64,000 nucleotides of DNA from a virus (Duplodnaviria > Caudoviricetes). Positions 2 to 64,000 of this stretch are shown here, piece after piece. Each line of letters opens with the position of its first letter. Position 1 is the stretch's first letter. A model generated the notes under the pieces. The model saw only the letters and a list, made by a program, of their open reading frames with translations. It was not told the origin of the DNA and did no database searches. The stretch spans positions 1,707 through 65,706 of the IMG/VR virus record IMGVR_UViG_3300025924_000024; one strand, written 5' to 3'. The translations under genes were made by a program, and so were the position numbers.

Positions 2-316
2 CACCGGCTTGCAAAAAAGGGCGTCGAGATCCGCACGCGCGCGCCGGCGACGCCGCGTGTCAGGGCGCCAAGGCCACCGCGGCTGCCAAAGATCAAGCCG
101 GAGCCCCGGCAGATTGAGGCGCCGCTGGACCCGGAGTTCGCGGTCAGAGTGATCGAGGCCCGCGACGGTCACTGCTGCTGGCCATTCGGCGACCCTCAGC
201 TCGACGAATTCCGATATTGCGGACGGCCAAGATTCGAGGGACACCCCTACTGCGAAGGTCACTGCCGGGACGCCTATCAACCGCGTCAACCGCGCCGGGC
301 CAAGGAGGACGCATGA
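2..316 (+). CDS. gcrA: GcrA-family cell-cycle regulator, C-terminal part (5'-truncated by window)
   Basis: Manual translation of frame 2: Pro/Arg-rich linker, then HCCWPFGDPQLDEFRYCGRPRFEGHPYCEGHCRDAYQP, matching the GcrA C-terminal CxWPxGDP...CG...PYC..H...AYQ pattern. The stop overlaps the next ATG (ATGA, 313-316). Not in the ORF track. Confidence 0.8.
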   Translation, partial: HRLAKKGVEIRTRAPATPRVRAPRPPRLPKIKPEPRQIEAPLDPEFAVRVIEARDGHCCWPFGDPQLDEFRYCGRPRFEGHPYCEGHCRDAYQPRQPRRAKEDA

Positions 317-1479
317 CATATCCCCGCGTGCTCAGCGAAGACGAGACGCTCGATCAGGCCATCGCAGGCAAATGTCTCGCTCGGTATGGTGATGGTGAGC
401 TGAGCCTCGCGCTGGGCGGCGACTGCATCTTTCAGGTCCGCAACGCGGTGCTCGCAAACGAACTCCGAAAAATACTGCTCAGGCCGCGCCCGAACTTGCT
501 GGTGTGCATCCCCAATTGCGAGGCCGAGACCAAGCCCAGCTGGCGCCGGTACGCCGGCGAAACCTACACCCGCCTTTACGACCCGGCGCTGACCTATGGG
601 AGCGCGTTTGTCAGCCGGCCGGACTCGGCCCCGTGGATTGACCGGCCGGACTATTGGGAAAAGCTGACCGGGATCTGGAGGGGCAAGGACGTCACGCTGG
701 TCGCCGGCACCGACGTCTCGCTCAGAGCGGCCGAACTCGGCGCGGCGAGCGTGCGGCTGGTCAAGGGCCCGGGTGAGAACGCGTGGGCCGAGATCGATCG
801 AATCGACGAGGAGATCGGAACCCCGGCCGGGCCGGTGCTGCTCTGTCTTGGGCCGGCGGCGACCGTGCTCGCCTGGCGGCTTTCGCGCCGCAGCGTCCAC
901 GGCCTCGATATGGGGCACGTCGGGCTCTATCTGAGGCACACAGGCGCATACGCCATCGGGCTTGATGACGTGGCGTCGCCCGAATACCGGGCGCTCCTGA
1001 GGGCCGTGCATGCCCGGGAGACATGGGGCGAGCACGGGGCCTCTCACGCGCTGATCGTCTCGGCTTGGGCCCGTGATCTCAATGCGCGGTCGGTTTTGGA
1101 CTATGGCTGCGGGACGGCGACGCTGCCGAGCGCGCTCCACGCCCGGAACGCGGCGCTCAAGGTCCAGATTTATGACCCGGGCCGCGGTCAGACGCACTGG
1201 CCTCCGAAGCCGGCGGATCTGATCGTAGCAACCGACGTCCTCGAACACGTCGAGCCTGACAAGATCAGGACCGTGCTGCGCCACATTTTCCTGCTTGCCG
1301 TGAAGGGCGCCTTCTTCTCGATCTCATGCGAGCCCGCGAAAGAGAGGCTGCCCGACGGCCGCAATGCTCACATTTGCCTTCTCACCCCAGAAGCTTGGCT
1401 GAGCCTGATCGCCGAACTCCCTTGGACAATCGAAAAGACAGACCGCAAAAAGGGAGTTCGGGTGTGGATCAGAAAATAA
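313..1479 (+). CDS. GT-D fold (DUF1792-like) glycosyltransferase fused to a class I SAM methyltransferase
   Basis: N-half LARYGDGE...LLVCIP...VLLCLGPAATVLA...LDMGH; C-half VLDYGCG...DLIVATDVLEH. Likely start is ATG 313 after AGGAGG, not 217. Confidence 0.75.
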   Translation: MTYPRVLSEDETLDQAIAGKCLARYGDGELSLALGGDCIFQVRNAVLANELRKILLRPRPNLLVCIPNCEAETKPSWRRYAGETYTRLYDPALTYGSAFVSRPDSAPWIDRPDYWEKLTGIWRGKDVTLVAGTDVSLRAAELGAASVRLVKGPGENAWAEIDRIDEEIGTPAGPVLLCLGPAATVLAWRLSRRSVHGLDMGHVGLYLRHTGAYAIGLDDVASPEYRALLRAVHARETWGEHGASHALIVSAWARDLNARSVLDYGCGTATLPSALHARNAALKVQIYDPGRGQTHWPPKPADLIVATDVLEHVEPDKIRTVLRHIFLLAVKGAFFSISCEPAKERLPDGRNAHICLLTPEAWLSLIAELPWTIEKTDRKKGVRVWIRK

Positions 1480-2132
1480 GATTTCGCCCCGACTTCGACG
1501 CGTGGTGGCCCAACTATGACCACGCGCCGGAGACCTGTTTCAAGTTCGTGCAGCGCGGGCTTCCCGACGCCGATATCGCCGCGCGGCTGTGCCAGCGCCG
1601 GCGCGTCTGCATTCAGGCCGGCGCGCATGCCGGATTCTGGCCGCGGCGCCTGGCTGGTCATTTCACAACGGTCTACGCGTTCGAGCCCGAGCCCACGCTG
1701 TTCGAGTGCGCGCGGGCCAACCTGAGGCGCTGGCGCGTCAAGAACGTCGACCTGAGGCCGGACGCACTCGGCGATCAGGCCGGCACGGCAGTGCTGCGCG
1801 CACACCGCTCGGCCGGCAGCTGGGCGATTGCGCCGGGCCTGTCGTGGGACAGCGGCCTTACCGACGAGACGGCCGACGTTGAAGTGAAAGTGACGACGAT
1901 CGATGCGCTGGGGCTCCCGGTCGTCGACGCCATCTATCTCGACGTCGAGGGCTTCGAGACGACGGCGCTGACCGGCGCCGCGCGCACGATCGCTCGATCA
2001 CGGCCGATCATCCATCTCGAGGAATTGCCGGACAGCGCGGCGGCAATCGAGATTCACATGGCGGCGCTGCACTATGTCCGCGCGGCCGTTGCGCACAAGG
2101 ACGTGATTTTCAAACCGAGGGAGAGGTCATGA
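1464..2132 (+). CDS. FkbM-family SAM methyltransferase
   Basis: IQAGAHAG, VYAFEPEP, TIDALGLPVVDAIYLDVEGFE motifs. GTG start at 1464 after GGGAG. Confidence 0.75.
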   Translation: MDQKIRFRPDFDAWWPNYDHAPETCFKFVQRGLPDADIAARLCQRRRVCIQAGAHAGFWPRRLAGHFTTVYAFEPEPTLFECARANLRRWRVKNVDLRPDALGDQAGTAVLRAHRSAGSWAIAPGLSWDSGLTDETADVEVKVTTIDALGLPVVDAIYLDVEGFETTALTGAARTIARSRPIIHLEELPDSAAAIEIHMAALHYVRAAVAHKDVIFKPRERS

Positions 2133-2794
2133 GCGACGACAACGAGATCGAATTCGAGCCCGTCATCACCGAGCGGGCGTTTCCGTTTTTGCGCGTCCAG
2201 CAGGGCCGCATTGAGGCGCTGGCCGATGACCCTGCGGCGTGGCGCGAGGCTTACCGGCTGCAGCTGCTCGAGACGCTCGAAGCGATAGACGATTTCATCC
2301 CGCGCCCGCTGACCTCGGTCCTCGATATCGGCGGCGGGATGGGCGGCTTCGACGCGCTGCTCGCGAGGTGCCAACCGGGCTTGCGCATCACCATCATGGA
2401 CGGGTTTTCTGACAAACCCGTGCCCGAGCGCGACAAGGCGTTTTCGCAGAAGACATACTCTGACGCTGATGCGGCGCTCGATTTTCTCAACGCGAACAAC
2501 GTGCCGACCGACGACGTATCCTTCATCAACGCGAACGCGCCGGAGGCGAAGCCGACTCGGCAGTTCGACCTGATCTTGTCGCTGCAGGCGTGGTGTTTCC
2601 ATTTTATGCCTGCGGTCTACATGAAGTTCGCGCTCGCGGCTTCGCGCCCGGGGACGGTCTGGATTCTCGACGTCCGCGTCATGACCAAGTTCTGGGCGTC
2701 AGACCTGTTCTCGCAAGAGCGCCTCGAGCCCATCGGCGAGGCTCCCGGCTTCAACGACAAGTACACGCGCATGGCGTTTCGGGTGATCGCGTGA
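2129..2794 (+). CDS. Class I SAM-dependent methyltransferase
   Basis: VLDIGGGMGG motif I and FDLILSLQAWCFH; ATGA-coupled to the previous gene. Confidence 0.7.
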   Translation: MSDDNEIEFEPVITERAFPFLRVQQGRIEALADDPAAWREAYRLQLLETLEAIDDFIPRPLTSVLDIGGGMGGFDALLARCQPGLRITIMDGFSDKPVPERDKAFSQKTYSDADAALDFLNANNVPTDDVSFINANAPEAKPTRQFDLILSLQAWCFHFMPAVYMKFALAASRPGTVWILDVRVMTKFWASDLFSQERLEPIGEAPGFNDKYTRMAFRVIA

Positions 2795-3420
2795 TCGAGG
2801 TCGTCAGCGTGATCGGCGGCGGCTGGTCGCTGGGCATGCTGAGCCCTGAGGAGCGCGAGCGAATCCCGGGACACCGCATCGGCGTCAATGACAGCTTCTT
2901 GCACCTCGGCTGCGACGAGGGCGTGACCATGGACCGGCTCTGGACCGAAAACCGGTGGCGCGAGTGTGAACTGATCGCCCGGCCGCTTTCGGTGCGCGAC
3001 ACCGCGCTGCGCAATATCAAGGCCCAGCCGCTCTGGCTGACCGCGTTCGCCTGTGACCACGACACTGATCGAATGAGCGACATTCGCGGCACATATAACG
3101 GCCGCAACTCAGGCGCCTGCGCGATCAACGTGGCCTTTCAGATGAAGCCGCGGTTCATCATCCTGTGGGGCTTCGACATGTGCCGGTCGCCGAAGGGCGA
3201 GCCGTATTGGTATCCGGTTTACCCGTGGTCTCGCTGCCGGGAAGGCAACACGCCACCGCGCGTCTATCAGGACTGGAGCGCGGGCTTTCGCATCATCGCG
3301 GCGCAGTGCGCGGAGGCGGGAATCTCGGTCATCAACGCCAGCCCGGTCAGCGCGATCACCACCATTACAAAGGTCGACCCATGCAAGCTGCTCATGCCAA
3401 CGACGTCACGCTCTGCCTGA
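2791..3420 (+). CDS. DUF115/MptE-like or GT29-like Rossmann protein (putative glycan-modifying enzyme)
   Basis: VIGGGWSL, IGVND, NSGACAINVAFQM...IILWGFDM pattern typical of this group. GTG start in a GTGA overlap. Confidence 0.5.
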   Translation: MIEVVSVIGGGWSLGMLSPEERERIPGHRIGVNDSFLHLGCDEGVTMDRLWTENRWRECELIARPLSVRDTALRNIKAQPLWLTAFACDHDTDRMSDIRGTYNGRNSGACAINVAFQMKPRFIILWGFDMCRSPKGEPYWYPVYPWSRCREGNTPPRVYQDWSAGFRIIAAQCAEAGISVINASPVSAITTITKVDPCKLLMPTTSRSA

Positions 3421-4133
3421 GCTATTACGAAAACCCCGAAGTGCTGGCGCTGCAGTACGAGCGGCTCAGAGATCTCCCGGCCATCCTCAAGGAGCACATT
3501 CGGGTGATCGTCGTCGACGACGGCACGGCCGCGCCGGCGCACTCATCATTGCCCGGGCCAGGCGCCAAGACCGGGCCATTCACTCCGGCGTTCAAAGAAA
3601 AGCTGTTCGGCGTCGATCTCAGGCTGCTGGCAATGGACGTCGACGTGCGTTGGAATCAGGATGCCTGCCGCAATCTCGCGGTCTCGCAGGCCGAGACGAA
3701 GTGGCTGCTCCTGACCGACATCGACCATTTGATTCCGGCCGCGACCTGGCGATCGATAATCACGCAGCGCCTGTCATGGAAGAAGGTCTATACCTTTGAG
3801 CGCAAGACTGGCCCGGGCCTCTCGGTGCGCAACCCGCATCCCAACACCTGGCTGCTGACGCGCGACACCTTCGAAGCGGCCGGCGGCTACGACGAGCGCT
3901 TCGCCGGGTATTACGGGACCGATGGCGATTTTCGCGACAGGCTCAGGCGCGTCGCGGTGATCGAGCAGCTGCCGCTGGTGATTCACGAGGTCACGCCTGA
4001 CATGGTGTCGGACTGCCGGACGCGCCGCTATGAGCGAAAAACGCACGATGACAGGGTGACGATTCCTGAGATCAAAAAACGGCGTGGCAACGCGCCGACC
4101 GTCCGCAACCGCTTTCCATGGCATGAGGTCTGA
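3381..4133 (+). CDS. GT-A fold glycosyltransferase (GT2-like)
   Basis: IVVDDG, RNLAV...WLLLTDID (DxD), GGYDERFAGYYGTDGDF. Start ATG 3381. Confidence 0.8.
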   Translation: MQAAHANDVTLCLSYYENPEVLALQYERLRDLPAILKEHIRVIVVDDGTAAPAHSSLPGPGAKTGPFTPAFKEKLFGVDLRLLAMDVDVRWNQDACRNLAVSQAETKWLLLTDIDHLIPAATWRSIITQRLSWKKVYTFERKTGPGLSVRNPHPNTWLLTRDTFEAAGGYDERFAGYYGTDGDFRDRLRRVAVIEQLPLVIHEVTPDMVSDCRTRRYERKTHDDRVTIPEIKKRRGNAPTVRNRFPWHEV

Positions 4134-4134
4134 A

Positions 4135-4494
4135 ATGGCTTTGAGCAGCACGCACACGTTCGCCGAGATGCAGATATCCGGTAAAGCCTATGACGAGATC
4201 CGCGCTAAGCTTGAGGACGCGGGTTACGGCCACGCCCTCCTGCCCATGGAGGGAGGGGTCACACTCGACATGCATGGCATCGGCCTGACGCGCGCGCCTG
4301 AGCCCGTCGGATTCGTGAAGTCCGAGTGCAAGCTGAGCGACGCCGACGTCGCTGAGATCCGGCGCAGCATCGCCGAGGGGCTGATCGGGCCGCAAAACTG
4401 CGGTCGGCCTGTGATCTTGGAATCGGGTGCCCGGGTGATCTTCGAAGCGGCTGCGCCAAAGTCGCTCGAAATGGTGGAGGTCTGGCCGTGCTGA
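4135..4494 (+). CDS. Hypothetical protein
   Basis: Fills the gap between GT2 and HNH in operon orientation; start ATG 4135. Confidence 0.5.
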
Positions 4495-4997
4495 CCGTCG
4501 AGGAGCGTAAGGAGCGCCGCAAAATCAAAGCGCGAAAATACGTTGCCGACTATCGCCGCCGACACCCCGAGAGGCTGTGGGACGTCACTCACCCGGAACG
4601 GGCATCGGAGATCCGCAAGAACGCACCATCAAACACAAAGGCGGCGCGGGCCGAGAGGATGCGAAATTGGCGGCGAAACAATCCAGAACGGAACGCAGCG
4701 ACCGCACTGAAAGGACGTCCGGTCAGGCTAAAGGCGCTCAGAGATTGGCGGCAACGAAACAAAGAAAAAATGCGGGCAGCGTGCGCGGCCTACGATGCCT
4801 TAAAAAAACGCGCGCTTCCCGCGTGGGCTGACCGCAGCGCGATAGAAAAAATCTACCTTGAATGCCCACCCGGAATGGAAGTCGATCACGTCATCCCGCT
4901 GCGCGGCAAGCTGGTGTGCGGTCTGCATGTGCCCGAGAACCTTCAATATCTGACGCCTGCGGAAAACAGGAGCAAGGGCAATAAATGGCACCCTTAA
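4488..4997 (+). CDS. Free-standing HNH endonuclease (homing type)
   Basis: Basic repetitive N-terminus and VDHVIPLRG...[22 protein letters not shown]; visibly more A-rich than its neighbours. Confidence 0.8.
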
Positions 4998-5713
4998 CAA
5001 TCGTTACGTTCCTGTGGCGCCCGAAGAAGCACTACCGATCGAGCTACACGACGGAGCACGTCGACATTCTCCGGCGCATGGTCCGGCGGCACTACAAAAA
5101 GCCGCACCGCTTCGTGCTGGTAACCGATGACCCGACCGGGCTGACCGAGCGCGATATCGAGTGCTTTGAGCTGTGGTCGGATTTCAGCGAAATGGTCAAC
5201 CCGAGCGGCGGCAACAATCCCAGCTGCTATCGGCGCCTGCGCCTGTTCGCGCCTGAGCCCGGCGCGTTCCTCGGCGAGCGTTTCGTCTGTGTGGATCTGG
5301 ACACGGTCATCACCGGAAACCTCGCGCCGCTCTGGGACCGCGAGGAGGACTTCGTCATCTGGAAGTCGCCGGGCGGCGGCAATCACCGCAACCCCTACTG
5401 CGGGTCCATGTTCATGCTCACCGCCGGCGCGCGGCCTCAGGTGTGGATGGATTTCGACCCTCACCGCTCGCCCGTCCTGACGACCGCCCACGGTCTCTTC
5501 GGCAGCGATCAAGCGTGGATTGCCTACCGCCTCGGCCCTGAGGAGGCGACGTGGAGCGAGGCCGACGGCGTCTACAGCTACCGCTCGCAGGTCCAGATGA
5601 AACACAGGGGCGTGCTGCCGCGCGGGGCAAAGATCGTTTTCTTTCACGGCAAGCCCGACCCCGAGGACCCTGAGCCGCAGCGCCTGCAATGGGTGCGGCA
5701 AAACTATCGCTGA
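4985..5713 (+). CDS. GT-A fold glycosyltransferase (GT8-like phage family)
   Basis: [21 protein letters not shown] (DxD), [17 protein letters not shown]. Confidence 0.7.
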
Positions 5714-5728
5714 GCTATAACCCGGGCC

Positions 5729-6115
5729 ATGGGACTCAGCGCCGGCGAATTGGACAGACGAATCGAGGTCGAGATCGGCACGCCCGGCCAGGACGCGGCC
5801 GGCGACGTCGTGCCGGATTGGTCGTTGCTCGAAAAGCGCTGGGCGAAGAAGCGCGAGGGCGTCGGCCGCGAGTTCATGGGCTCCCAGCAGGTCATCCGTG
5901 ACGCCGACACAACGTTCACCCTGCGCTACGACACCGCCAGCCGGGCCTATGCCCCGGAGACGCACCGATTCGTGTACCGCAGCGTGATCTTTGAGATCGT
6001 GGCCATCGCTGAGGTCACCGACGGCCGCTTCAACGGTCTGTCGTTTCTGTGCTGCTCGAGGCCGGACGCTGGCGGCGCGCGCGGCCGTGACACCACGTCG
6101 GATGGCTCGCCGTGA
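5729..6115 (+). CDS. Head closure / head-tail adaptor (SPP1 gp16-like)
   Basis: AGELDRRIEV...W...E...TTFTLRY...RFVY...FEI pattern; first neck gene. Confidence 0.75.
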   Translation: MGLSAGELDRRIEVEIGTPGQDAAGDVVPDWSLLEKRWAKKREGVGREFMGSQQVIRDADTTFTLRYDTASRAYAPETHRFVYRSVIFEIVAIAEVTDGRFNGLSFLCCSRPDAGGARGRDTTSDGSP

Positions 6116-30378: not shown

Positions 30379-31629
30379 TGACGTGCTCCTTGACCGCCGC
30401 CTCGAGCGTCTCGAAAAAATATTCGGATGACATGGTGCCGAGCCGACCCGAGAAACGGCTTTTGACCATCCAATAAGTGTCGTGCTCACGGTCAGCGACG
30501 GCGATCAGGTGAGCGTCGGTCACCTCGGCGCTCGAGCACGGCAACGATTCGGACGTAACGTCACGCGAGCGCCGCGGCGAGCCTTTCAGTTCGGTGCTAT
30601 CGAAAATCAGGATTCTCATTTGCGCCCTCGATTCTTCGGCCGCGCATTCTTGGTTCGCTTGCCGACCCACCGGTCAAGTTCGGTGGCGGACGCGACCAGC
30701 GCAGTCAGCGCGAGAGACGCGAACTTCGCCGTCTCAGCCAGCCGGTATGCCGACTCGGCCATCACCATCTGGGTGGTCATCAGGTGAGCGCGCGCAAACG
30801 CGACCGTGCCCGGCTTGACGGCCATGCGCGCCATGCGCGTGACGATCATGTCGTCCAGCTGGCGCTGCATGCGTTGCTCTTCCGTCTCAGGCGGTTTCTT
30901 TTTCGTCATCGTCAGTCGGTCTCCCTTTCGATTAGCAGTGACGTGTCCAAGTCGGCGGCAGCGAAGGCCACGACCGACTCCGGCGTGAAAAGCAACAGCG
31001 CTCGAGCAACGCTCGCCCGCTTAAAGTCTTTTGAGCGCGCCCAATGCTTGAGGCGACGCTCGACGGCCTCCCCTGACAGTTTCGGTCTGCGCTTTGCCAT
31101 CACTCGCGCCCCACGATCAGACCAACAGGGCCGAGGCAAAACGTGACGTCCTCAGAGTCCCAGCAGACGCCTATCGTCCAATTGCGCGGATTCCAGCAGA
31201 GCCACGTCCGTTTCGTCAGCTGCATGGTCACTCCTCCAGAATCGGCGTCTTGAGATGGTCGACCGGACGCCACGCGGCCTGATATTCCTCCGGCGCGTTG
31301 GCGCGTTGCCACGCCCGCAGCCGGGTCATGTATTCGAACTCGGTCTGCGTGATCGGGTACTGACAGAGCCGCGTCCATTCGGCCACCGGGTCTTTCGGCA
31401 CGCCGTCAATCTCACAGAGCAACACCTCGGGCGACGTCAACTCACCCGCGTCGTCGACCTCCTGCCTCAACCAGATCCGCGCCGGCACGAACGGCGCCTT
31501 GCGCGCGAGCCGCGCCTTGAAAAACCCGCACAGCGGTTCGTCCTCGTGGATCTGGACGTGCCACGCGCGGCCGGCGCACGCCTGCGCGTGCCAGGCGAAA
31601 GCGAGCGCGAGGTCAGACGGCTTTCGCAC
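30365..31629 (-). other. Small hypothetical ORFs (30365-~30620, 30616-30909, 30912-~31103, 31228-31629)
   Basis: Chained same-strand ORFs. Confidence 0.45.
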
Positions 31630-33259
31630 GGTCGACCTCCACGGGCTGAGGCCGACGCGCGCGCTCGAGTTCGGCCTTGATGCGCCGGCCGACCCACGCG
31701 ATCACCGGCACCGCCATGCTGTTTCCGAGTTCGCGGTACCGGAGGCTGTTGCTTGCCGGTTTCCCGCGCACAGGCACGAGCGTGTAATCGTCATCAAAGC
31801 CGAACAGCCGCTCCCACTCGCGCGGCGTCAGGCGGCGGACGACGGCGCCGGCGGCGCGCACCGGGTCCTGATCGCCTTTATCAGCGTCGGCGCTGAGACC
31901 GAACGCAACGTCCTGCGGCTTGCCGTCTTTGCCGCGCGTGAAATGGCTGGGCTTGAACATCACCGCCAGCTGACTGCCGCCGTTCGTGTTCGCCTGGTCG
32001 GCGTTCATCGCCCGCGCGGTCGGCGCGAGATCTTCGCAGGCATCGCCCGCGTCAGATTTGCAATTGAACACGAGCGGCCGGCTGTCCGTTCTCAGCGCCG
32101 GCGAGACGTCCGGGCTGGGCTGGGTCCGGTCGTTGGGTGCCGTGAGGTCTTTGCCGTTGACGACCGTCACACCTTCGAACAGCAGCGGGAGGCTCGAGCC
32201 GCTGAGCGTCGGCCCGGCGCCGTCGGCCGACGATGGACGGCTGCGGTTGTCGGGTGAGGTCAGCTGCACGGCGTCAGCGATCACGACGTGGCTGCTTGGG
32301 TCTTTCGCGCCCATGAGCGTGTCGACCTTGTCGCCAGTCGAATAACCGCCCTCGCTCGAGGTCACCCGAAAAGCCTCAACGAGCAGGTGCCCGTCTTTCG
32401 TGTTGCTGTCGACGCCCTTGGCATCGCGCTCCTGCAGCGCCCACGCGGCCTCAGGCGGCTCAACGATGAACGCGCCCTGCTGATCTAGGTCCGTCGTTCT
32501 GAAACCGCCCTGAGCGTTGCTTCCAAGTGTGCCGGCAACGTCTTCCCCCGCTTGACGGCGCGACGGAGGATTCCGCGACACGCCAGCCGGCTCAAATAAA
32601 ACTCGGGCGGGATCTGGCCCGTCTCTAAAACTGACGACAAGGAACACACGCTCGCGTCGTTGGGCCAGGCCGAAGTATTGAGCGTCCAAAACACGCCACG
32701 CGGCCCGCGCCAATGGTCCGGCAACCATACCCGCGTCGGGCCACCGTCCGCGTTGGAGTGGCGAAACGAGGGCGGCATCTGAGCCGACAAAGCCTGCAAG
32801 GAGACATCCGAAGGCGTTGTCGTCGGTGCTGAGGACGCCCGGGACGTTTTCCCAGCAGATAGTGAGTCCGCGTTTCCCGGCTCGAAGCCGTCGAGCGTCA
32901 ATTGCACGTGCAAGCCTCACAAATGAAAGGGCCAGGTTACCGCGGTCGTCGCTCAGGCTTAGACGTTTGCCAGCGACGCTGAAAGACTGACAGGGCGTGC
33001 CGCCGATCAAGAGCTCAGGCAGCGCGATACCGAGGCGCTCCATGTGCCGCACGCGCAGCGCCGAGAAGTCACCCCAAAGCGGCACCCATGATCTTGGCGC
33101 CGCGCCGGCGCGCGAGTCGAAGGCTCGCCACCGGTACTTCAGCAGCGCAACCGGGCCCGCGTCGATCTCGCTGAGCATGACCGGCTCGAAGCCGAGCGGC
33201 GTCAGCGCGCAAGACGCGGCCTCGATTCCCGAGCAGACGCTCATGAAGGGAATGGTCAT
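31613..33259 (-). CDS. DNA (cytosine-5) methyltransferase with a long variable region
   Basis: SVCSGIEA (I), GGTPCQSFS (IV), ENVPG (VI), QRRERVF (VIII), RRLTPRE.ERL.GF (IX), RY..LGNSMAVPV (X). Confidence 0.92.
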   Translation of the reverse strand: MTIPFMSVCSGIEAASCALTPLGFEPVMLSEIDAGPVALLKYRWRAFDSRAGAAPRSWVPLWGDFSALRVRHMERLGIALPELLIGGTPCQSFSVAGKRLSLSDDRGNLALSFVRLARAIDARRLRAGKRGLTICWENVPGVLSTDDNAFGCLLAGFVGSDAALVSPLQRGRWPDAGMVAGPLARAAWRVLDAQYFGLAQRRERVFLVVSFRDGPDPARVLFEPAGVSRNPPSRRQAGEDVAGTLGSNAQGGFRTTDLDQQGAFIVEPPEAAWALQERDAKGVDSNTKDGHLLVEAFRVTSSEGGYSTGDKVDTLMGAKDPSSHVVIADAVQLTSPDNRSRPSSADGAGPTLSGSSLPLLFEGVTVVNGKDLTAPNDRTQPSPDVSPALRTDSRPLVFNCKSDAGDACEDLAPTARAMNADQANTNGGSQLAVMFKPSHFTRGKDGKPQDVAFGLSADADKGDQDPVRAAGAVVRRLTPREWERLFGFDDDYTLVPVRGKPASNSLRYRELGNSMAVPVIAWVGRRIKAELERARRPQPVEVDRAKAV

Positions 33260-48311: not shown

Positions 48312-49817
48312 ATGTCAGGAACGAAGAGCACCTACGACGAACTATTTGTCGACGCGGACGGCAAGCAATTCTGGCCGTTCGACGTTGAGACCGAGCAGGC
48401 CCTGATCGGCTGGGCGCTGCTCGAGCGCCGGGCGATCGCCGTCATGCAGACCGAAATGTCGGTCGACGACGTCTATGACCCCGTCCACGCCCTGATCTTC
48501 GAGCGCATCTTCGCGAAGTACGAGGCCGAGTCGCCGATCACGCCGCTCACCCTCAACGCTTCGCTGAAACACGTCTTTGCCAAGGCCGAATTCAACGGCC
48601 TGTCCTACCTGGTCGGTTGCGCTCAGGCTGCGCCGGCAGCGCCGACGATGGAAATGCTGTTCGAGCAGGTCAAAGACGCCGCGCGAACTGTTGCTGACCA
48701 CAAGATCCGCCGGCGCGCGTCCGAGGCCCTCGTCGACGGCGTTGAGGCCATGCGCTCCGGCGAATCCGTTACCGATGCTCTCGCTCACGTCGTCACGGTA
48801 TCCGACGAGGAAAACGAGCGGGTCGAAATGCGCCGCGGCGCCGTCTCCGTCAGCGAGGCCGCGAACACGCTGGTAACCGACCTCGAGCGCAACGAGGACA
48901 TCCGAATCCCGGCCGCGCCGACAGGTCTCATAACGCTCGATCAGATTGTCGGCGGCAATTTCCCGGGCGAGTTCGTCGTCGTTGGCGGTCGGCCAGGCAT
49001 GGGCAAATCGGTCGTCGGCGAAATGATGGCGCGTCATGCCGCCATGGATGACTTCGCGGTCGACTATTTCGACCTCGAGAACAAGACCGGCGTGCTGACC
49101 GCGCGCATGCTTTGCGATATCGATTACGACCGCGCGTTCGCCGAGGGCCTAAAGCCCATCCAGTTTTCGCGCATCCGCCTGCGCCGCATCAGCGCGGACG
49201 AGCGTCAGCGCCTCGCCGAGGCAACGCTCAAGCTTCGCGAACTGGATATTCAAATCCACGACCGCGAAGAAATGACCATCGACGCGATCACCGCTATCTG
49301 CCGCGCCAAACGCGCGCGCACAAAAAAACGCATGATGGTTGTCGTCGACCACATGCACCTCGTTGAGCCGAGCAAGCGCTACTTCGGCCGCAAGGTCGAC
49401 GAGATCTCCGAAATTACGAAAGGTCTAAAGCGGCTCGCCAAGCGTCTCGACGCGTCGGTCGTCGCCCTCGCTCAGCTCAGCCGCGGCGTTGAAGGCCGCG
49501 ATGACAAGCGGCCGACCATGTCTGACTTCCGGGAATCGGGGTCAATCGAGCAAGACGCCGATGCGATGTATGGCCTTCACCGGCCGCAATACTATCTCGA
49601 GCGCAATAAGCCCAAGGCTGACGCGAGCGAAGTCGACAGGGGCAAGCACGCGGCAATGCTGATCGCCTCGCACAACGTGCTCGACTTCGGCCTGCTCAAA
49701 AACCGGCATGGGCCAACGACCGACCTTCAGGTCTATTGCGACGTCGCGTGCTCAGCGGTCAGAGACGAAAAACCGAGCAATGGCCCGACGCTCGATTACA
49801 AGGGATTGTTCGCGTGA
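48312..49817 (+). CDS. dnaB: DnaB-family replicative helicase
   Basis: GGRPGMGKS (Walker A), VVVDHMHL, LAQLSRGVEGRDDKRPTMSDFRESGSIEQDAD, KNRHGPT. Confidence 0.93.
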   Translation: MSGTKSTYDELFVDADGKQFWPFDVETEQALIGWALLERRAIAVMQTEMSVDDVYDPVHALIFERIFAKYEAESPITPLTLNASLKHVFAKAEFNGLSYLVGCAQAAPAAPTMEMLFEQVKDAARTVADHKIRRRASEALVDGVEAMRSGESVTDALAHVVTVSDEENERVEMRRGAVSVSEAANTLVTDLERNEDIRIPAAPTGLITLDQIVGGNFPGEFVVVGGRPGMGKSVVGEMMARHAAMDDFAVDYFDLENKTGVLTARMLCDIDYDRAFAEGLKPIQFSRIRLRRISADERQRLAEATLKLRELDIQIHDREEMTIDAITAICRAKRARTKKRMMVVVDHMHLVEPSKRYFGRKVDEISEITKGLKRLAKRLDASVVALAQLSRGVEGRDDKRPTMSDFRESGSIEQDADAMYGLHRPQYYLERNKPKADASEVDRGKHAAMLIASHNVLDFGLLKNRHGPTTDLQVYCDVACSAVRDEKPSNGPTLDYKGLFA

Positions 49818-50707
49818 GCGCGCCAACGCGGCCGGCGCTTCGCTGGCATGGCGGCAAATGGCTGCTCGCGCCGTGGATCATCGGGTTTTTCCCGCCTCAC
49901 AGGATCTACGTCGAGCCGTTCGGCGGCGCGGCCTCGGTCCTCCTCCGCAAGCCGCGGTCCTATGGCGAGATTTACAACGACCTCGACTCCGAAGTGGTCA
50001 ACCTTTTCCGCGTGCTCAGATCTCCGGCTGACGCCGAGCGGCTCGTCTGGTCGCTGAGGATCACGCCGTTCGCGCGAGACGAATTCGCGCTCGCCTACGA
50101 GTGGGCGCTCGACCCGGCTGAGCAGGCACGCCGTCTAGTCGTCCGCTCGTTCATGGGTTTCGGCTCTGACGGTCATAACCGGCTTGTCACCACCGGCTTC
50201 CGGTCCAACGCGAATCGCGCCGGCACCACGCCAGCGCATGACTGGATGAACTACCCTGACGCGCTCGAAATGACGGTCGAGCGGTTGCGCGGCGTCGTGA
50301 TCGAGAACCGGCCGGCGATCAAGGTGATGGCGCACCACGACTCGCCCGAGACGCTCCACTACGTCGACCCGCCGTACTTACCCACAACGCGCTCACAAAA
50401 AAGTCGGAAGTCGGGAGAGCGGTATCACACCTACACCCACGAAATGTCCGCCGCCGATCATTATGAGCTCTTGCAATTTCTCAACGGCGCGAGCGGGATG
50501 GTCGTTCTCTCAGGCTATCCCGCGCCGCTTTACGAAGAGGCGCTGACCGGCTGGGAACGCCACGAACGCGAAGCGCTCGCTGACGGTGCCCGGCCACGAA
50601 CGGAGGTTGTGTGGCTCAATCCCGCATGCGTCGCCGCTCGCGCCCTGGCCGCAAAGCCGCAAGCGGCCGTGATCGCTCACCCTGACCTGTTCACCTTTGG
50701 AGGCTGA
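49814..50707 (+). CDS. Dam-like (D12 class) DNA adenine methyltransferase
   Basis: LRWHGGKW, YVEPFGGAASVL, YNDLD, HYVDPPY. GTG start at 49814. Confidence 0.9.
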   Translation: MSAPTRPALRWHGGKWLLAPWIIGFFPPHRIYVEPFGGAASVLLRKPRSYGEIYNDLDSEVVNLFRVLRSPADAERLVWSLRITPFARDEFALAYEWALDPAEQARRLVVRSFMGFGSDGHNRLVTTGFRSNANRAGTTPAHDWMNYPDALEMTVERLRGVVIENRPAIKVMAHHDSPETLHYVDPPYLPTTRSQKSRKSGERYHTYTHEMSAADHYELLQFLNGASGMVVLSGYPAPLYEEALTGWERHEREALADGARPRTEVVWLNPACVAARALAAKPQAAVIAHPDLFTFGG

Positions 50708-54330: not shown

Positions 54331-54554
54331 CGGACCTCAGCCGCCGCCAGATCTTCGCTGTCACGGCCGGCGCTGCAGCGGCGACGTTGCCGTTGCCGGC
54401 CGCGCCCGTGGTGAGGACGGTCATCGACAACCAGACCGGTCGCGTCATCAGCCGTGCGCGCCCGCTTGACTCGTGGAACGCGGCGGCGCTGGGTTTCATG
54501 ACGCGCGCTGAGATCCGCGCGCTCGAGGACCTCCCGCCCCTGCAGGAAACATGA
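54327..54554 (+). CDS. Small protein with Tat-like signal
   Basis: MTDLSRRQIFAVTAGAAAATLPLPAAP; ATGA overlap. Confidence 0.6.
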   Translation: MTDLSRRQIFAVTAGAAAATLPLPAAPVVRTVIDNQTGRVISRARPLDSWNAAALGFMTRAEIRALEDLPPLQET

Positions 54555-60538: not shown

Positions 60539-61870
60539 ATGAGCATTCGCAAACTGCCGGACGTCCGCAATTTCGTGGAGCCCGAGGACTTCGAACCGGT
60601 CCCGTCAGCGGACGCGGTCAATCACTGGCTGCCGAGCATTCGCTATGACGGCGCGTCCGATGGCCTGACGGTCATCGAGATCCTGACCGAGATCGGGAAA
60701 GACCCGTGGACCGGCCAGGGCATTGACGCCACCGACGTCGCGGCTCAGCTCAAGGGCGCAAAGGACGTGCTCGTCGTGATGAACACGCTGGGCGGTTCGT
60801 TCGCTCAGGCCGTGACCATTTACAATTTGCTCCGCGGTCATCCGGGCAAGGTCATCGTGAAGGTGATCGGCATGGCGGCGTCAGCGGGCTCGATCATCTG
60901 CATGGCGGGCGACGAGATTCAGATGGGCCCCGCAGCCTTCATGATGATTCACAACGGGCAGGGCGTCTGCCAGGGCGACCGCCACGCCATGCAAAACGCC
61001 GCCACGAACCTTGAGGCGATCGACGCCAGCATCCGTGATCTCTACGTCGCGCGCACCGGCAAGCACGCGAACGGCATCGCGCAAATGATGGACGCCGAAA
61101 CGCTCATGAACGCGCGCGACGCCATCAAGGCGGGCTTCGCTGACAGCTTGATCCCGGCCGGCCAGATCACCGAGCAGGTCACAAACTCGATGACGACCGC
61201 CATCGCGGCAAAGAAGTTCGCGGACGTCGTCTTTGCGCACGCCGGCGTGCCGCGCTCACGGCGCCGGGAGATCTTCGCGGCGATCAAAGCCGGGCCCGTC
61301 GACCCCGTGCTCGCCGGCGCGGCCGAAGCGTTCGAGGGCTTGCGCGGTGAGATGCAGGAACTGCGCTCGCTGCTGGCGACGACCCGCAACGAGGCGGCAA
61401 AGGCACCCGAGTGGCACGTCGGCGCTCCGACGAACCTGCCGCTTGATCCGAGCGAAAGCTGGGACGGCCCGGCGGCTGCGCAGCGGTTGCTCGATGCGGC
61501 CGGCTATGGCGGTGACGGCATGAACTACGCGGCGGCGCGCCGCGGCTTCCTGTTCTGTGACACGGCCAACCCTGACCTCGCCGAGTCCTACAAGGACCCC
61601 ATCGCTGACATCGTCGGCGGCGAAATGAAGGCGGTGCGCGGTGGCGTTCGCGCTGCGGCGTCGCGGTTGTCTCAGACCTCAGACATCCCGGCGGACGTTG
61701 CAAAACAGGCGCGCGCCGTCGTACAGCACTACGAAGACAGATTCGCCGGTGCCCAAGGCCCGGGTGGCACGCAAAACGCTGCCGAGGACGTCCAGCTTCA
61801 TGCGGACGACATGCGTGCCCTCGCGGATGACCTGCGTGGGTTTCTTCCAACGGCAAGGACTGAATCATGA
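60539..61870 (+). CDS. ClpP-type (S14) prohead protease with a C-terminal extra domain
   Basis: NTLGGS, GMAASAGSII.MAGD, MMIHN, ET.M.A..A...GFAD; C-terminal WDGPAA..R...YKDPIAD..GG.MKAV. Confidence 0.85.
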   Translation: MSIRKLPDVRNFVEPEDFEPVPSADAVNHWLPSIRYDGASDGLTVIEILTEIGKDPWTGQGIDATDVAAQLKGAKDVLVVMNTLGGSFAQAVTIYNLLRGHPGKVIVKVIGMAASAGSIICMAGDEIQMGPAAFMMIHNGQGVCQGDRHAMQNAATNLEAIDASIRDLYVARTGKHANGIAQMMDAETLMNARDAIKAGFADSLIPAGQITEQVTNSMTTAIAAKKFADVVFAHAGVPRSRRREIFAAIKAGPVDPVLAGAAEAFEGLRGEMQELRSLLATTRNEAAKAPEWHVGAPTNLPLDPSESWDGPAAAQRLLDAAGYGGDGMNYAAARRGFLFCDTANPDLAESYKDPIADIVGGEMKAVRGGVRAAASRLSQTSDIPADVAKQARAVVQHYEDRFAGAQGPGGTQNAAEDVQLHADDMRALADDLRGFLPTARTES

Positions 61871-63162
61871 GAACCCACTATCCCTTCAACGTTTTGCGCC
61901 GGCCGCAGGGCCTGCGCGGCGTTCGGATGGACGGCGGTGCCGACGTTGCAAAGGAAGTCCGCACGCTGATGCAGGACGTCCGCAACGAGCTGACCCGTCG
62001 CGACACCGAACTGAAAACGCTGGTCGAGACTGCCACCAACCAGATCAAGGAGCAGGGCACGATCAGCGCCGAACTGAAGACCAAGCTGACCGAGCACGTC
62101 GAAGCCTCGGGCGCGCTGCAGACCCGCGTGGTTGCGGTCGAGCAGGCGCTGGCGGCGATCAGAAACCTCAGGCCCGGCAGCGAAGCGCGCCAGACCTTGG
62201 GCCGCATGGTCATCGGGAACGAAGAGGTCAAGAACTGGCTCAAGCAGGGCATCGGTGCGCGCGGTCATGTGCGCATGGAAGTCAAGAACGCGATTCAGGA
62301 ATTTGTGTCCGGCGGCTCCGGTACCGGCGCCAACGAGATCATTATCCCGCAGCGCGTTCCGGGCTGGATCACGCCGGCGAACAGGACGCTGCGCGTTCGT
62401 CAGCTCCTGCAGGCCGGCCGCACCGTCTCCAACGCCGTCGACTTCGTGAAGGAATCCGGTTTCACGAATGCGGCGCGCGCTGTTGCCGAGGGCGAGACCA
62501 AGCCCGAGTCGAACCTGACCTTCACGCTTGAGACCGCTCCGGTTCGCACTATCGCGCACTGGATTCAGGCGTCGAAGCAGGTGCTCGAGGACATCCCTCA
62601 GCTTGAAAGCTACATCGACACGCGCCTGCGCTACGGCCTGGCGCTGGTCGAGGAAGAGCAGCTGCTGAGCGGTGACGGCACGGGCCACAACCTGCTGGGT
62701 CTCATCCCGCAGGCCACGCCGTTCGATATGAGCCGGCGCAAGGTCGGCGACACCCGCATGGACATCGTGCGCCGCGCGATGACCCAGCTGCGGATTTCCG
62801 AGTACCAGCCCGACGCGATCGTGCTGCACCCCTCGGATTGGGAGGATATCGAACTGACGAAAAACAGCTTCGGCCAGTACATCCGGGCGAATCCCGGCTC
62901 GCTGCTGCCGCCGACGCTATGGGGTCTTCCCGTCCTCGACTCGACGTCGCTTGCCCCGGGTGAGTTCATGGTCGGCGCGTTCGGCATGGCCGCGCAGATT
63001 TGGGACCGCGACGACGCGAGCGTCGAGATCTCGACCGAAGACCGGGACAACTTCATCAAGAACATGGTCACCATCCGCGCCGAGTTGCGGTTGGCCCTGA
63101 CCGTGTACCGTCCCGAGTCCTTCATCTTCGGAGACTTCTCCGACGACGTTTCGGGCGGCTGA
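61867..63162 (+). CDS. HK97-fold major capsid protein
   Basis: Coiled-coil delta domain, V.EG..KPES, IAHW...S.QVL.D, QLL.GDG, F.KNMVTIRAE.RLAL.VYRP. Confidence 0.95.
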   Translation: MRTHYPFNVLRRPQGLRGVRMDGGADVAKEVRTLMQDVRNELTRRDTELKTLVETATNQIKEQGTISAELKTKLTEHVEASGALQTRVVAVEQALAAIRNLRPGSEARQTLGRMVIGNEEVKNWLKQGIGARGHVRMEVKNAIQEFVSGGSGTGANEIIIPQRVPGWITPANRTLRVRQLLQAGRTVSNAVDFVKESGFTNAARAVAEGETKPESNLTFTLETAPVRTIAHWIQASKQVLEDIPQLESYIDTRLRYGLALVEEEQLLSGDGTGHNLLGLIPQATPFDMSRRKVGDTRMDIVRRAMTQLRISEYQPDAIVLHPSDWEDIELTKNSFGQYIRANPGSLLPPTLWGLPVLDSTSLAPGEFMVGAFGMAAQIWDRDDASVEISTEDRDNFIKNMVTIRAELRLALTVYRPESFIFGDFSDDVSGG

Positions 63163-63684: not shown

Positions 63685-63783
63685 GATCAGCGCCAAAGGG
63701 AACACGCGAGGGGTCGGCGGCAGCGTCGGCCCCTTTTCGTTTGCCGGGGCCCGGGATAGGAATTGGGGGCAAAGGAGACGCCC

Positions 63784-64000
63784 ATGCCGCCAGCACCCGC
63801 TCCAACGATTGCCGAGGTCACGAGGCCCTACAGCGGGCAGGAGGGTTTCCGGGTGAAAGCCGGCACGCGGCTCGCGGTCGGCAAGCCGGTCGACGGTCTC
63901 AAGGTCATCACCGAGGACCGCTATAACCAGCTGCTCAAAAGCGGTCTCGCTCGTCCCTTCGGCGCTCAGAACGGCCCGCTGTCTCAAACCCCGCCGCCGC
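63784..64000 (+). CDS. Head-region small protein (3'-truncated by window)
   Basis: MPPAPAPTIAEVTRPYSGQEGFRVKAGTRL...; GGAGAC RBS. Confidence 0.55.
   Translation, partial: MPPAPAPTIAEVTRPYSGQEGFRVKAGTRLAVGKPVDGLKVITEDRYNQLLKSGLARPFGAQNGPLSQTPPP

Follow-up and report, generated by a model that had tools for sequence, protein, structure and literature searches.

In mycobacteriophages, the subunits of capsid and tail tube are glycosylated by glycosyltransferases (GTs) that the phage itself encodes together with an O-methyltransferase (Freeman et al. 2023, cited through PMC11600133, PMC12363180 and PMC12619734), and it is only for mycobacterial phages that glycosylation of the particle by such enzymes has been experimentally shown. 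Che8, Corndog and Myrna carry tandem GTs with an O-methyltransferase, soluble and thought to decorate virion proteins, an arrangement resembling that of the phage described here. Unlike the mycobacteriophages, the present phage has a Gram-negative host, draws on GT-D, Maf-like and GT8-like enzyme families, has a major capsid protein (MCP) and a tail tube devoid of a C-terminal S/T tail, and carries its cassette inside the head-neck module, with one enzyme apparently made by frameshifting. No sequence homology to the mycobacteriophage GTs was detected, which speaks against the virion reading, and no Mycobacterium phage appeared among the tblastn matches.

Related folds are found in bacterial systems. 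The protein encoded by g4 (Table 1) shares its fold with Maf, the nonulosonic-acid O-glycosyltransferase for flagellin (Magnetospirillum, PDB 5mu5), and with CstII/CstI (CAZy GT42). This Maf is an alphaproteobacterial protein O-glycosyltransferase; in contrast, g4 and its relative DUF115b comprise only about 200 aa without the Maf flanking domains, and the phage lacks nonulosonate biosynthesis genes. Characterised GT-D and GT8 (GlyE) members act in the glycosylation of streptococcal serine-rich-repeat adhesins (GT-D dGT1/SP_1767 family), where, as in the system proposed here, cytoplasmic enzymes extend an O-glycan stepwise on a protein; g1 matches PF08759/TIGR03728 and g8 matches GlyE, although the phage has neither the GtfA/B priming pair, nor SecA2/Y2 export, nor a serine-rich repeat protein.

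Among phages, the closest cultured relative is “Tetraselmis viridis virus” S20/SI1 (TvV-S20, NC_020840), a tailed phage judged by its gene content, with identities of 54% (TerL), 52% (MCP) and 58% (tail tube). Its genes run MCP - small ORF / -1 Maf-like - Ad1 - GT-D - Maf-like - MTase - GT2 - FkbM - GT8-like - Hc1, an order that we regard as the same as in the present phage. It differs in its separate GT-D and methyltransferase genes, in the lack of GcrA, g6 and HNH genes, and in its smaller genome (39 kb). Pseudomonas phage D3 (orf6.5/orf7, plus orf12/orf13) and P1 (pmgO/pmgP) also carry Maf-like members of phrog_4603 in their late operons, which in D3 include a Maf-like gene between MCP and Ad1, as here, and, as in L024 and L027, a nearby Methyltransf_23 gene together with an unknown gene of about 300 aa. 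Both differ in having minimal cassettes of one or two Maf-like genes plus a methyltransferase or GT-A gene, without GT-D, GT2 or a GT8-like g8. In P1, phiNP and CcrColossus, the neighbours of the related mini-cassette are packaging, lysis or tail genes and not the capsid gene, which counts against a virion target. A further point against it is that, to our knowledge, no virion glycoprotein has been described from D3 or P1, long as both have been studied.

The gene run and its enzymes

The window, a stretch of 64,000 nucleotides, belongs to an IMG/VR record whose ends overlap by 126 nt and which therefore closes into a circle; it represents a complete genome of about 65.6 kb from a phage whose host is probably an alphaproteobacterium. 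Because the record circularises, the block can be placed between the capsid gene and Hc1, in the order MCP - small ORF (SMALL) - second Maf-like gene (DUF115b) - Ad1 adaptor - GcrA - block - Hc1. A sequence-only reading of the window had described seven overlap-coupled genes between head and neck genes, directly before the head-closure gene: the coupling and the immediate vicinity of Hc1 hold, the head-neck position holds on the circle but not on the linear record, and the count rises to eight, a nuclease gene (g7) having been overlooked.

Table 1. Features of the cassette and its surroundings (positions in the window unless indicated)
Feature	Position	Strand	Evidence and remarks
MCP, HK97 type	61867..63162	+	phrog_10 major head protein, E 1.4e-77; head-side marker of cassette
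SMALL, 5' part	63763..64000	+	ATG at 63784; continues past window end at record start
DUF115b, second Maf-like domain	record ~262-957 = L001:56-751, outside window	-1 frame of SMALL	phrog_4603, E 2.8e-43
GcrA-like regulator	2..316	+	PF07750, E 1.7e-14; stop overlaps g1 start (ATGA)
g1, GT-D (DUF1792) glycosyltransferase + class-I SAM methyltransferase fusion	313..1479	+	PF08759 E 4.3e-23; PF13489 (Methyltransf_23) E 3.8e-8
g2, FkbM-family methyltransferase	1464..2132	+	PF05050 44.2 bits (cut-off 22.7); TIGR01444 72.7 bits (cut-off 37.7)
g3, probable class-I SAM methyltransferase	2129..2794	+	PF13489 24.3 bits, under cut-off 27
g4, Maf/CstII-fold, DUF115-like, sialyltransferase-like glycosyltransferase	2791..3420	+	phrog_4603 E 1.4e-12; AF2 model
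g5, GT2-like (GT-A) glycosyltransferase	3381..4133	+	PF10111 29.2 bits vs cut-off 27.3; 40 residues matched
g6, 123-aa protein	4123..4494	+	no Pfam, PHROG or NCBIfam match
g7, HNH/endonuclease-VII-type nuclease	4488..4997	+	phrog_26577 E 3.5e-16; phrog_1035 endonuclease VII E 1.4e-13; phrog_1271 HNH
g8, GT8-fold retaining-type GT-A glycosyltransferase	4985..5713	+	phrog_1962 E 1.6e-11; DLD motif; AF2 model
Hc1, head-closure protein	5729..6115	+	PF05521 E 3e-15; phrog_25 E 2.2e-14; neck-side marker of cassette

The eight co-directional ORFs of the run (313-5713) overlap by 4-40 nt, and gene junctions either overlap or leave a gap of at most 15 nt. Neither a sigma-70-like nor an internal promoter was found in the run, and its terminator-like matches (10 vs 6.5 +/- 2.8 in shuffles) show no excess. 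The enzymes are soluble and, as the sequence-only reading had noted, show no transmembrane segments, the top hydropathy over 19 residues being 1.56. Coupled genes, with neither membrane segments, nor a promoter of their own, nor an excess of terminators, point to late co-expression with the structural genes, in the cytoplasm.

Counting DUF115b upstream of the window, five sugar-transferase-like and three methyltransferase domains lie inside this head-and-neck assembly operon. Fold or family was confirmed for six of the eight ORFs (Pfam, PHROG, NCBIfam, AF2 models), so that the GT-D+MTase fusion, FkbM, DUF115-like (here Maf/CstII-fold), GT2 and GT8-like assignments proposed earlier proved well founded on profile and structure matches (PF08759, PF05050, PF10111, Maf, LgtC), while that of g3 is probable. 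In g1, the match to TIGR03728 (SP_1767 family) is significant (E 1.6e-24) with a score of 86.8, far under the cut-off of 290.75. Neither D27-G-E29 nor the LDYGCG motif varies across 16 homologues. Its fused form, found in 922 proteins from metagenomes and on 17 IMG/VR contigs but in 4 of 185,579 species genomes, is essentially phage-specific. Orthologues of g3 occupy the same position in at least 12 loci, and the TvV-S20 orthologue of g5 matches PF00535 above cut-off.

The AF2 model of g4 (pLDDT 95) finds its best structural match in Maf 5mu5 (Z 14.4, rmsd 3.5, 178 aligned), followed by CstII (Z 11-12) and MptE/TPK-type pyrophosphokinases (Z 10-11, 117-141 aligned). g4 and DUF115b are paralogues that can be aligned over their full length, both with an N-terminal G-G/S-G-P/W-S motif and a GFD motif; CstII leads the PDB matches of their family profile, and their PF01973 scores (12.8-30.6) lie under the cut-off of 34.6. 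In g8, D104-L-D106 is invariant, all 21 leading PDB matches of the profile are GT8 proteins (E about 0.08 and above), and the AF2 model (pLDDT 92) resembles LgtC (Z 19.0, rmsd 2.9, 216 aligned), glycogenin (Z 16.8) and GlyE (Z 16.2).

Across more than 100 loci, g6 has no tblastn match; it is specific to the present phage and belongs to an insertion that separates g5 from g8. Likewise, g7 is missing from all relatives, g5 abutting g8 in 11 loci, and is probably a mobile insertion. The GcrA-like gene is not found between Ad1 and GT-D in L022 or TvV-S20, and L002 has a fragment of it; it is an insertion observed solely in the present phage and L002, and no cassette enzyme.

A probable SMALL/DUF115b frameshift

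SMALL follows the capsid gene, encodes an N-terminal domain of about 60 aa and then a P/S/T-rich tail, and was found only where DUF115b is present. The DUF115b frame has no ATG, GTG or TTG ahead of its nucleotide-binding motif, and the heptamer C_CCT_TTG, identical in TvV-S20, stands in SMALL in the correct phase for a -1 slip. A conserved -1 ribosomal frameshift in SMALL appears to give rise to DUF115b, and the same seems true of Pseudomonas phage D3. An X_XXY_YYZ heptamer in the right phase occurs in 15 of 16 loci, heptamers number 23 in this phase but 1 and 2 in the two others, and 13 of the 16 loci have no start codon ahead of the N-terminal motif; in TvV-S20, TGA codons close the -1 frame right up to the heptamer. 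Furthermore, between L008 and L013, 15 of 21 substitutions before the heptamer fall at zero-frame third positions, vs 5 of 6 and then 26 of 28 at -1-frame third positions after it. Any RNA structure downstream of the heptamer is weak or inconsistent, with z from +0.2 to -2.5. In P1, L014, L104 and L106 the Maf-like enzyme has its own start codon. In D3 its gene runs in the -1 frame relative to a small S-rich ORF that it overlaps, and the heptamer is C_CCA_AAG.

The proposed arrangement recalls the gpG/gpGT tail assembly chaperones, where a short ORF inside a morphogenesis operon likewise has a canonical X_XXY_YYZ heptamer close to its end, giving short and C-terminally extended products that share an N-domain. 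Unlike gpG/gpGT, the putative SMALL site follows the capsid gene, and its extension is an enzyme-like domain.

Conservation, acceptors and the likely target

The synteny expected for such a block does exist: the core g1-g3-g4-g5-g8 keeps its order, at 40-68% identity, in more than 20 viral contigs and prophages whose TerL and MCP are 21-61% and 36-57% identical to those of the present phage, and it lies among head or neck genes in every locus with visible neighbours, TvV-S20 included. In the Bradyrhizobium prophage L104 the core is present and the upstream capsid-like ORF does not match the present MCP. The closest relatives, L024, L025 and L027, do without g1-g8, a fact that counts against a virion role, and the block can be regarded as accessory or dispensable.

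Concerning acceptors, the S/T/P-rich stretches suggested earlier were borne out in one case. The protein starting at 63784 does stand out; it corresponds to the zero-frame product of the frameshift gene, from which a -1 slip would yield another glycosyltransferase-like enzyme. The S/T content of the SMALL tail is partly imposed by the -1 frame that runs through the same DNA, codons for VVIV reading as SSSS. The 11829 (previously 11850) protein and the tail and hub proteins are not unusually S/T-rich: like MCP and the tail tube, they have no stretch above the phage's other proteins (maxima of 0.28-0.40 S/T per 25 residues). The C-termini of MCP and tail tube lack the S/T-rich tail that mycobacteriophage C-terminal glycans would predict, and no mucin-like stretch occurs in these or in the phage's other virion proteins, which also counts against virion glycosylation.

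Gene content, folds, operon position, synteny and the frameshift signature are observed features, and several targets could be proposed from them. Remodelling of a host envelope glycoconjugate (LPS/LOS, capsule, EPS, glycosylated flagellin or pilin) late in infection, keeping progeny off debris or excluding competitors, for example, is unlikely, even though GT8 (LgtC, Z 19), CstII-type and GT2 enzymes are classic builders of LOS and LPS, a fact that also weighs against a virion target. D3 is a serotype-converting phage, and the variation of the block among close relatives is moron-like. Nevertheless, the phage run encodes neither membrane proteins nor a flippase nor Gtr-type components, its linkage to head and neck genes persists across unrelated structural modules, and one enzyme would be a translational fusion with a protein whose gene lies beside the capsid gene; moreover, coupling within the late structural operon, with no promoter or terminator of its own, would leave the cassette silent in a lysogen. 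It is similarly improbable that the target is a small molecule or a protein absent from the finished particle, such as a scaffold, an assembly chaperone, SMALL itself in a soluble role, or a receptor or defence protein of the host. The lack of a convincing acceptor motif on the major virion proteins would suit this possibility, as would the strict co-occurrence of SMALL with DUF115b, which makes it a potential substrate or carrier, and the fold that g4 shares with pyrophosphokinases; but g4 fits Maf and CstII better than the kinases, the head/neck position is conserved, and a set of five transferase-like plus three methyltransferase domains amounts to a heavy outlay for a transient factor.

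Hypermodification of phage DNA with methylated sugars, evading restriction, is very improbable, in line with the initial reading: the ORFs scanned include no hydroxymethylase, nucleotide kinase or other gene for base hypermodification, and the DNA of the mini-cassette carriers D3 and P1 is ordinary and restrictable. We know of no DNA glycosyltransferase from the GT-D, Maf-like, GT8 or FkbM families. On the other hand, late expression would fit modification at packaging, three DNA methyltransferases indicate that the phage invests in protecting its DNA, and the best-known activity of phage GTs is the glycosylation of DNA (PMC12619734, citing Pyle et al. 2024).

Altogether, we consider it somewhat better than an even chance (about 0.55) that the cassette is a phage-borne protein-glycosylation and sugar-methylation set whose acceptor is most likely a protein of the assembling virion. 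Enzyme folds, solubility, late-operon position and synteny favour the methylated multi-sugar glycan on virion proteins originally proposed, and S/T-rich acceptor sites do not; the invariant catalytic-type motifs (DGE in GT-D, DLD in g8) and a position kept in many phages with diverged structural genes lend further support. From these features we infer the enzyme activities, donors and virion target, as well as any role in, for example, shielding or adhesion. Expressed late along with the head and neck genes, the soluble set of DUF115b and g4 (Maf/CstII-fold), GT-D, GT2, the GT8-fold transferase and three methyltransferase domains would work in the cytoplasm, using nucleotide sugars of the host to build a short, methylated oligosaccharide. 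The first enzyme, DUF115b, would be produced only upon a -1 ribosome slip near the end of SMALL and, being made by slippage within that gene, would carry the N-terminal domain of SMALL, which may plausibly recruit the enzyme to its substrate or to the head.

Genome ends and the order of the late genes

The source record (65,706 nt, of which the window covers bases 1707-65706) is rated 100% complete by CheckV. Its last 126 nt repeat positions 24-149 (window 63875-64000 = record 24-149), its first 23 nt are an inverted copy, i.e., an assembly artefact, and one ORF is split across the record boundary. Since the record ends overlap by 126 nt, the genome closes as a circle, and the "linear" record represents about 65.56 kb of closed or terminally redundant DNA.

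Read round this junction, the late operon confirms what had been proposed by a sequence-only reading, namely that a block of sugar-transferase and methyltransferase genes lies between head and neck genes and directly before the head-closure gene, from which a gap of 15 nt separates it. Seven overlap-coupled genes had been counted; the coupling is real, with junction overlaps of 4-40 nt, but the block comprises eight co-directional ORFs, g1 to g8. No sigma-70-like promoter was found within it, and its terminator-like matches are no commoner than in shuffles.

Features of the late region, in operon order as read round the record junction (window positions unless stated otherwise)
Feature	Position	Remark
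Large terminase subunit (TerL)	56762-58591	first in the late operon
Portal, then ClpP-type prohead protease		between TerL and MCP
HK97-type major capsid protein (MCP)	61867-63162	
Two small ORFs, then Maf-like gene		downstream of MCP, upstream of Ad1
SMALL/DUF115b region	63763-64000, then record 24-957	enzyme domain L001:56-751 (L001, upstream part of the record)
Head-tail adaptor (Ad1)	record 878-1591	
GcrA-like gene	2-316 (record 1585-2022)	
g1-g8 block	313-5713	co-directional, between GcrA-like gene and Hc1
g6	in 4123-4997 insertion, with g7	unknown protein
g7	in 4123-4997 insertion, with g6	HNH/endonuclease-VII-type nuclease, overlooked by the sequence-only reading
Head closure (Hc1)	5729-6115	
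Neck1, tail terminator, major tail protein, tape measure		after Hc1

The GcrA-like gene inserted between Ad1 and g1, which runs into g1 through an ATGA overlap, is otherwise found only in one compared viral locus (L002), and it is not at the Ad1/g1 junction in locus L022 or in 'Tetraselmis viridis virus' S20/SI1 (TvV-S20, NC_020840); a transcription cofactor amid a head-neck operon is unusual. Directly after the tape measure gene, window 11146-11853 matches phrog_2913, 'glycoside hydrolase' (E 1.5e-37), and is kept in several cassette-bearing relatives; its product could be a virion-borne glycan-degrading enzyme. Elsewhere in the window, three DNA methyltransferases of the C5-cytosine, D12 N6-adenine and N4/N6 types (31613-33259, minus strand; 49736-50707 and 54551-56131, plus strand) suggest a heavy anti-restriction investment through DNA methylation.

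Enzymes of the cassette

The block together with DUF115b, a paralogue of g4 encoded upstream of it (see below), comprises five glycosyltransferase-like domains, of four folds, and three methyltransferase domains. No protein of the block contains a hydrophobic segment of membrane-spanning type, in agreement with the sequence-only reading. The product of g1 is indeed a fusion of a GT-D domain (residues 22-203; PF08759, E 4e-23, 82.7 bits against a gathering score of 27), with a distant match to the SP_1767 family TIGR03728, and a class-I methyltransferase. Both its D27-G28-E29 triad and its LDYGCG motif are invariant in 16 homologues. The structure paper on dGT1 reportedly gives DxE as the metal-binding motif of GT-D, the equivalence of the g1 triad to it being judged by eye and not by superposition. 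In turn, g2 is the FkbM methyltransferase it had been taken for (PF05050, 44.2 against a cut-off of 22.7; TIGR01444, 72.7 against 37.7), while g3, described as a SAM methyltransferase, is a probable one whose match falls just under the Pfam cut-off. The GT2 assignment of g5 is marginal, as PF10111 matches just 40 of its residues, at 29.2 against a cut-off of 27.3; it is backed by the TvV-S20 orthologue, which matches PF00535 (26.5 against 23.3).

For g4, the description as a DUF115/GT29-like protein agrees with a match to phrog_4603 and with the sialyltransferase-like fold of its AF2 model (pLDDT 95). The model is closest in structure to Maf, a flagellin glycosyltransferase from Magnetospirillum (5mu5; Z 14.4, rmsd 3.5, 178 aligned), then to CstII/CstI (Z 11-12), and after these to pyrophosphokinases and GT29 enzymes, with unrelated chains at Z 4.3 or less. 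The gathering score of PF01973 (Maf/DUF115), 34.6, is not reached by g4 (12.8 bits), by its paralogue DUF115b (19.2) or by the copy in locus L007 (30.6). By its modelled fold, g4 is a predicted Maf/CstII-fold transferase, for which transfer of CMP-nonulosonic acid is only a family trait.

The GT8-like label of g8 is upheld by a full-length GT8 fold and a DxD motif (D104-L-D106, invariant in 14 homologues), but not by sequence-model membership. Its AF2 model matches LgtC (Z 19.0, 216 aligned), Skp1 alpha-GalT (17.2), glycogenin (16.8) and GlyE (16.2), whereas Pfam Glyco_transf_8 gives no match even at E up to 5 and the profile search against the PDB has a best E of 0.08. Having the fold and the motif but no sequence-model match, g8 is called GT8-like only, a predicted relative and not a filed member of GT8. 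A link of g8 to pmgQ of phage P1 was considered and dropped, as tblastn with g8 does not reach pmgQ.

Between g5 and g8, the pair g6 and g7 forms an insertion of about 870 bp that all relatives lack, g5 being directly followed by g8 in 11 loci; the pair is probably a mobile homing-endonuclease cassette within the glyco-operon.

Modularity of the cassette and a candidate frameshift beside the capsid gene

The fused g1 is present at full length in 17 IMG/VR contigs and is matched by 922 metagenome proteins (E 1e-10 or better), whereas 185,579 species genomes yield only four occurrences (one in a Bradyrhizobium prophage, the others on three MAG contigs, all short), so that the fusion is essentially a phage gene. 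Its closest homologues, P0002 and P0003, share 74% identity with it. In a synteny survey by tblastn maps, of the kind that the sequence-only reading had suggested, the core g1-g3-g4-g5-g8 keeps its order at 40-68% identity, in relatives that have diverged elsewhere (terminase 21-61%, capsid protein 36-57% identical). Wherever neighbours are visible, this core adjoins genes of the head/neck module, usually in the order MCP, cassette, connector. In loci L004 (2179-9780) and L005 it sits between TerL and portal and not after the capsid gene, and in the Bradyrhizobium prophage it follows a capsid-like ORF unlike this MCP, which is lambda-E-like by eye only. In TvV-S20, a close cultured relative (TerL 54%, MCP 52%, tail tube 58% identity), the whole cassette lies between Ad1 and Hc1; a blastn search of the block against phage records returned only a 245-nt match, to this virus. 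TvV-S20, L022 and L017 encode GT-D and its methyltransferase separately, and the nearest relatives of the phage (L024, L025, L027) are without g1-g8. On comparative gene content, the cassette is judged to be accessory, modular and dispensable.

At the junction corresponding to the block (Ad1/Hc1), L024 (9723-11278) and L027 (11900-13494) carry a gene for an unknown protein of about 300 aa and a Methyltransf_23 gene; in Pseudomonas phage D3 (L103:5394-6789), orf12/orf13 are a gene for a protein of about 300 aa with a Methyltransf_23 gene nearby. The pair looks like a minimal cassette, and its protein of about 300 aa, which has no Pfam match in L024, L027 and D3, may be an unrecognised transferase. 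In Citrobacter phage phiNP, a stretch without annotated gene (L147:3001-3576) contains a full-length phrog_4603 homologue. It lies in the interval from the lysis genes to terS, with a paralogue annotated as 'sialyltransferase' and two hypothetical genes downstream of it.

Just after the MCP gene, the small gene SMALL (ATG at window 63784) encodes an N-domain of about 60 aa followed by a P/S/T-rich tail, and in its -1 frame lies DUF115b, the g4 paralogue (phrog_4603, E 2.8e-43). Upstream of the N-terminal nucleotide-binding motif of the enzyme, VIVAGGPS, there is no ATG, GTG or TTG, the first start coming 121 codons later; the downstream frame is start-less in most compared loci as well. This architecture, invariably -1, recurs in 15 further loci, including the independently sequenced D3 (orf6.5/orf7) and TvV-S20 (loci named with it: L007-L013, L018, L022, L024-L027, L102, L103, L105, L107).

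In 15 of 16 loci the overlap contains a heptamer of the form X_XXY_YYZ in zero-frame phase; 23 heptamers are in phase, and the control phases have 1 and 2. The heptamer is C_CCT_TTG in this phage, L022 and TvV-S20, G_GGA_AAA/G/C in the L008-L018 group, and C_CCA_AAG in D3, L026 and L027. In TvV-S20, four TGA codons close the -1 frame right up to the heptamer. Moreover, between L008 and L013 (91% identical), a single pair outside this phage's own clade, 15 of 21 substitutions upstream of the heptamer fall at zero-frame third positions; downstream of it, in a stretch that lies entirely before any start codon, they fall at -1-frame third positions (5/6, then 26/28). RNA folding 3' of the heptamers is weak and inconsistent (z +0.18 to -2.46 over 11 loci), and a metagenome scan with DUF115b returned distant relatives only (33-37% identity). 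The enzyme has its own start codon in L014, L104, L106 and P1. Among about 100 MCP-related loci, none has SMALL but lacks DUF115b. We regard the SMALL-DUF115b junction as a candidate for a conserved programmed -1 frameshift. The public annotations of D3 and TvV-S20 truncate the Maf-like enzyme, and literature searches on PmgO, orf6.5 or such a frameshift brought up no relevant work. A lambda FI-like identity of the SMALL N-domain, taken from an ESM Atlas cluster at rank 14 (0.77), was set aside as not supported by Pfam; the ESM Atlas search with this domain gave chance-level scores only (<=0.81).

Candidate acceptors and probable role of the cassette

We consider that the cassette glycosylates one or more virion proteins, with a probability of about 0.55. 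Five transferase-like and three methyltransferase domains, soluble and co-translated with head and neck proteins, point to enzymes that would build a short methylated glycan stepwise in the cytoplasm, late in infection. An acceptor that is a virion protein, or a protein close to the virion, is favoured because the cassette keeps its place among morphogenesis genes even where the structural modules are unrelated, because one enzyme would be fused by recoding to a protein encoded beside the capsid gene, and because for three of the enzyme types the nearest characterised relatives modify proteins, namely flagellin (Maf) and serine-rich adhesins (GT-D and GlyE). On the other side, no acceptor is evident. 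The S/T-rich acceptors that had been proposed find no support in a scan of all structural proteins, except for SMALL. The MCP (...GDFSDDVSGG) and the tail tube (...RPTLVLLTG) have no S/T-rich C-terminal acceptor tail, and neither they nor the proposed candidates apart from SMALL are S/T-rich. SMALL, which had been listed as an S/T/P-rich head protein at window 63784, does have such a tail, but its richness is partly a by-product of the frame overlap. Furthermore, the block is dispensable, and the mini-cassettes of P1, phiNP and CcrColossus adjoin packaging, lysis or tail genes and not the capsid gene. We know of no report of virion glycoproteins in D3 or P1.

It also counts against a virion target that GT8, GT2 and CstII enzymes build LPS/LOS too. 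Late remodelling of host envelope glycans seems unlikely to us, and a non-virion protein or small molecule as target equally so. DNA hypermodification, rightly ranked low by the sequence-only reading, is very improbable, as the scanned ORFs include no hydroxymethylase-type gene and the enzymes belong to families unsuited to such a role.

Among the MCP C-termini compared in 95 loci, a PAGSST-type tail occurs only in one carrier clade (L006-L018), and the MCP of this phage and its clade ends ...VSGG or ...VTG. The tail was rejected as a marker of carriers, since it does not separate them from non-carriers, many of which end in PTP. In L006-L013 and L018 the HK97-type MCP ends PAG(S/T/E)ST(T/H), reminiscent of the C-terminal sites at which mycobacteriophage capsids are glycosylated.

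To our knowledge, mycobacteriophages are the only phages whose own enzymes have been shown to glycosylate virions, which weakens antibody recognition there. As later papers describe the work of Freeman et al. 2023 (PMC11600133, PMC12363180, PMC12619734), phage glycosyltransferases and an O-methyltransferase act on capsid and tail tube. Soluble phage-encoded glycosyltransferases, usually with an O-methyltransferase, are common to both systems, those of the present phage being predicted. However, the enzyme families differ, C-terminal acceptor tails are absent here, and no Mycobacterium phage is matched when g1, g8 and DUF115b are compared by tblastn with 50,697 phage records. On these three grounds the cassette, by analogy, would work like the mycobacteriophage system without being a member of it. 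TvV-S20 has the same uncharacterised cassette, of which the functionally unstudied mini-cassettes of D3 and P1 (pmgO/pmgP), with one or two Maf-like genes and a methyltransferase or GT-A gene, can be seen as smaller counterparts, the present one being an expanded version.

As to how a virion protein would be glycosylated, a more specific scheme can be put forward tentatively, and we find it rather doubtful as a whole. In many Gram-negative phages, D3 and TvV-S20 included, the frameshift would give a Maf-like enzyme the N-domain that belongs to a small protein associated with the head; the SMALL N-domain would tether DUF115b, as a "priming" transferase of the capsid module, to the assembling head or to SMALL's own P/S/T-rich tail, and accessory enzymes, here g1-g8, would extend the primer to a methylated oligosaccharide of about five sugars. 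Proteobacterial phages would thereby have glycan-coated virions, made by a mechanism unlike the mycobacteriophage one.

Lacking a start codon, the first enzyme is regularly shortened or overlooked in genome annotation. If a frameshift does attach it to a protein of the head module, recoding would have a role new to phage assembly. The cassette also offers, in compact form, sugar methyltransferases together with soluble enzymes of the GT-D, Maf-like and GT8-like kinds, and it yields a prediction testable in cultured phages. If it does glycosylate virions, particles with a glycan coat would be widespread in proteobacterial phages, including the tractable D3, Caulobacter phages and TvV-S20, with a bearing on phage therapy (immunogenicity, clearance), adsorption and environmental stability.
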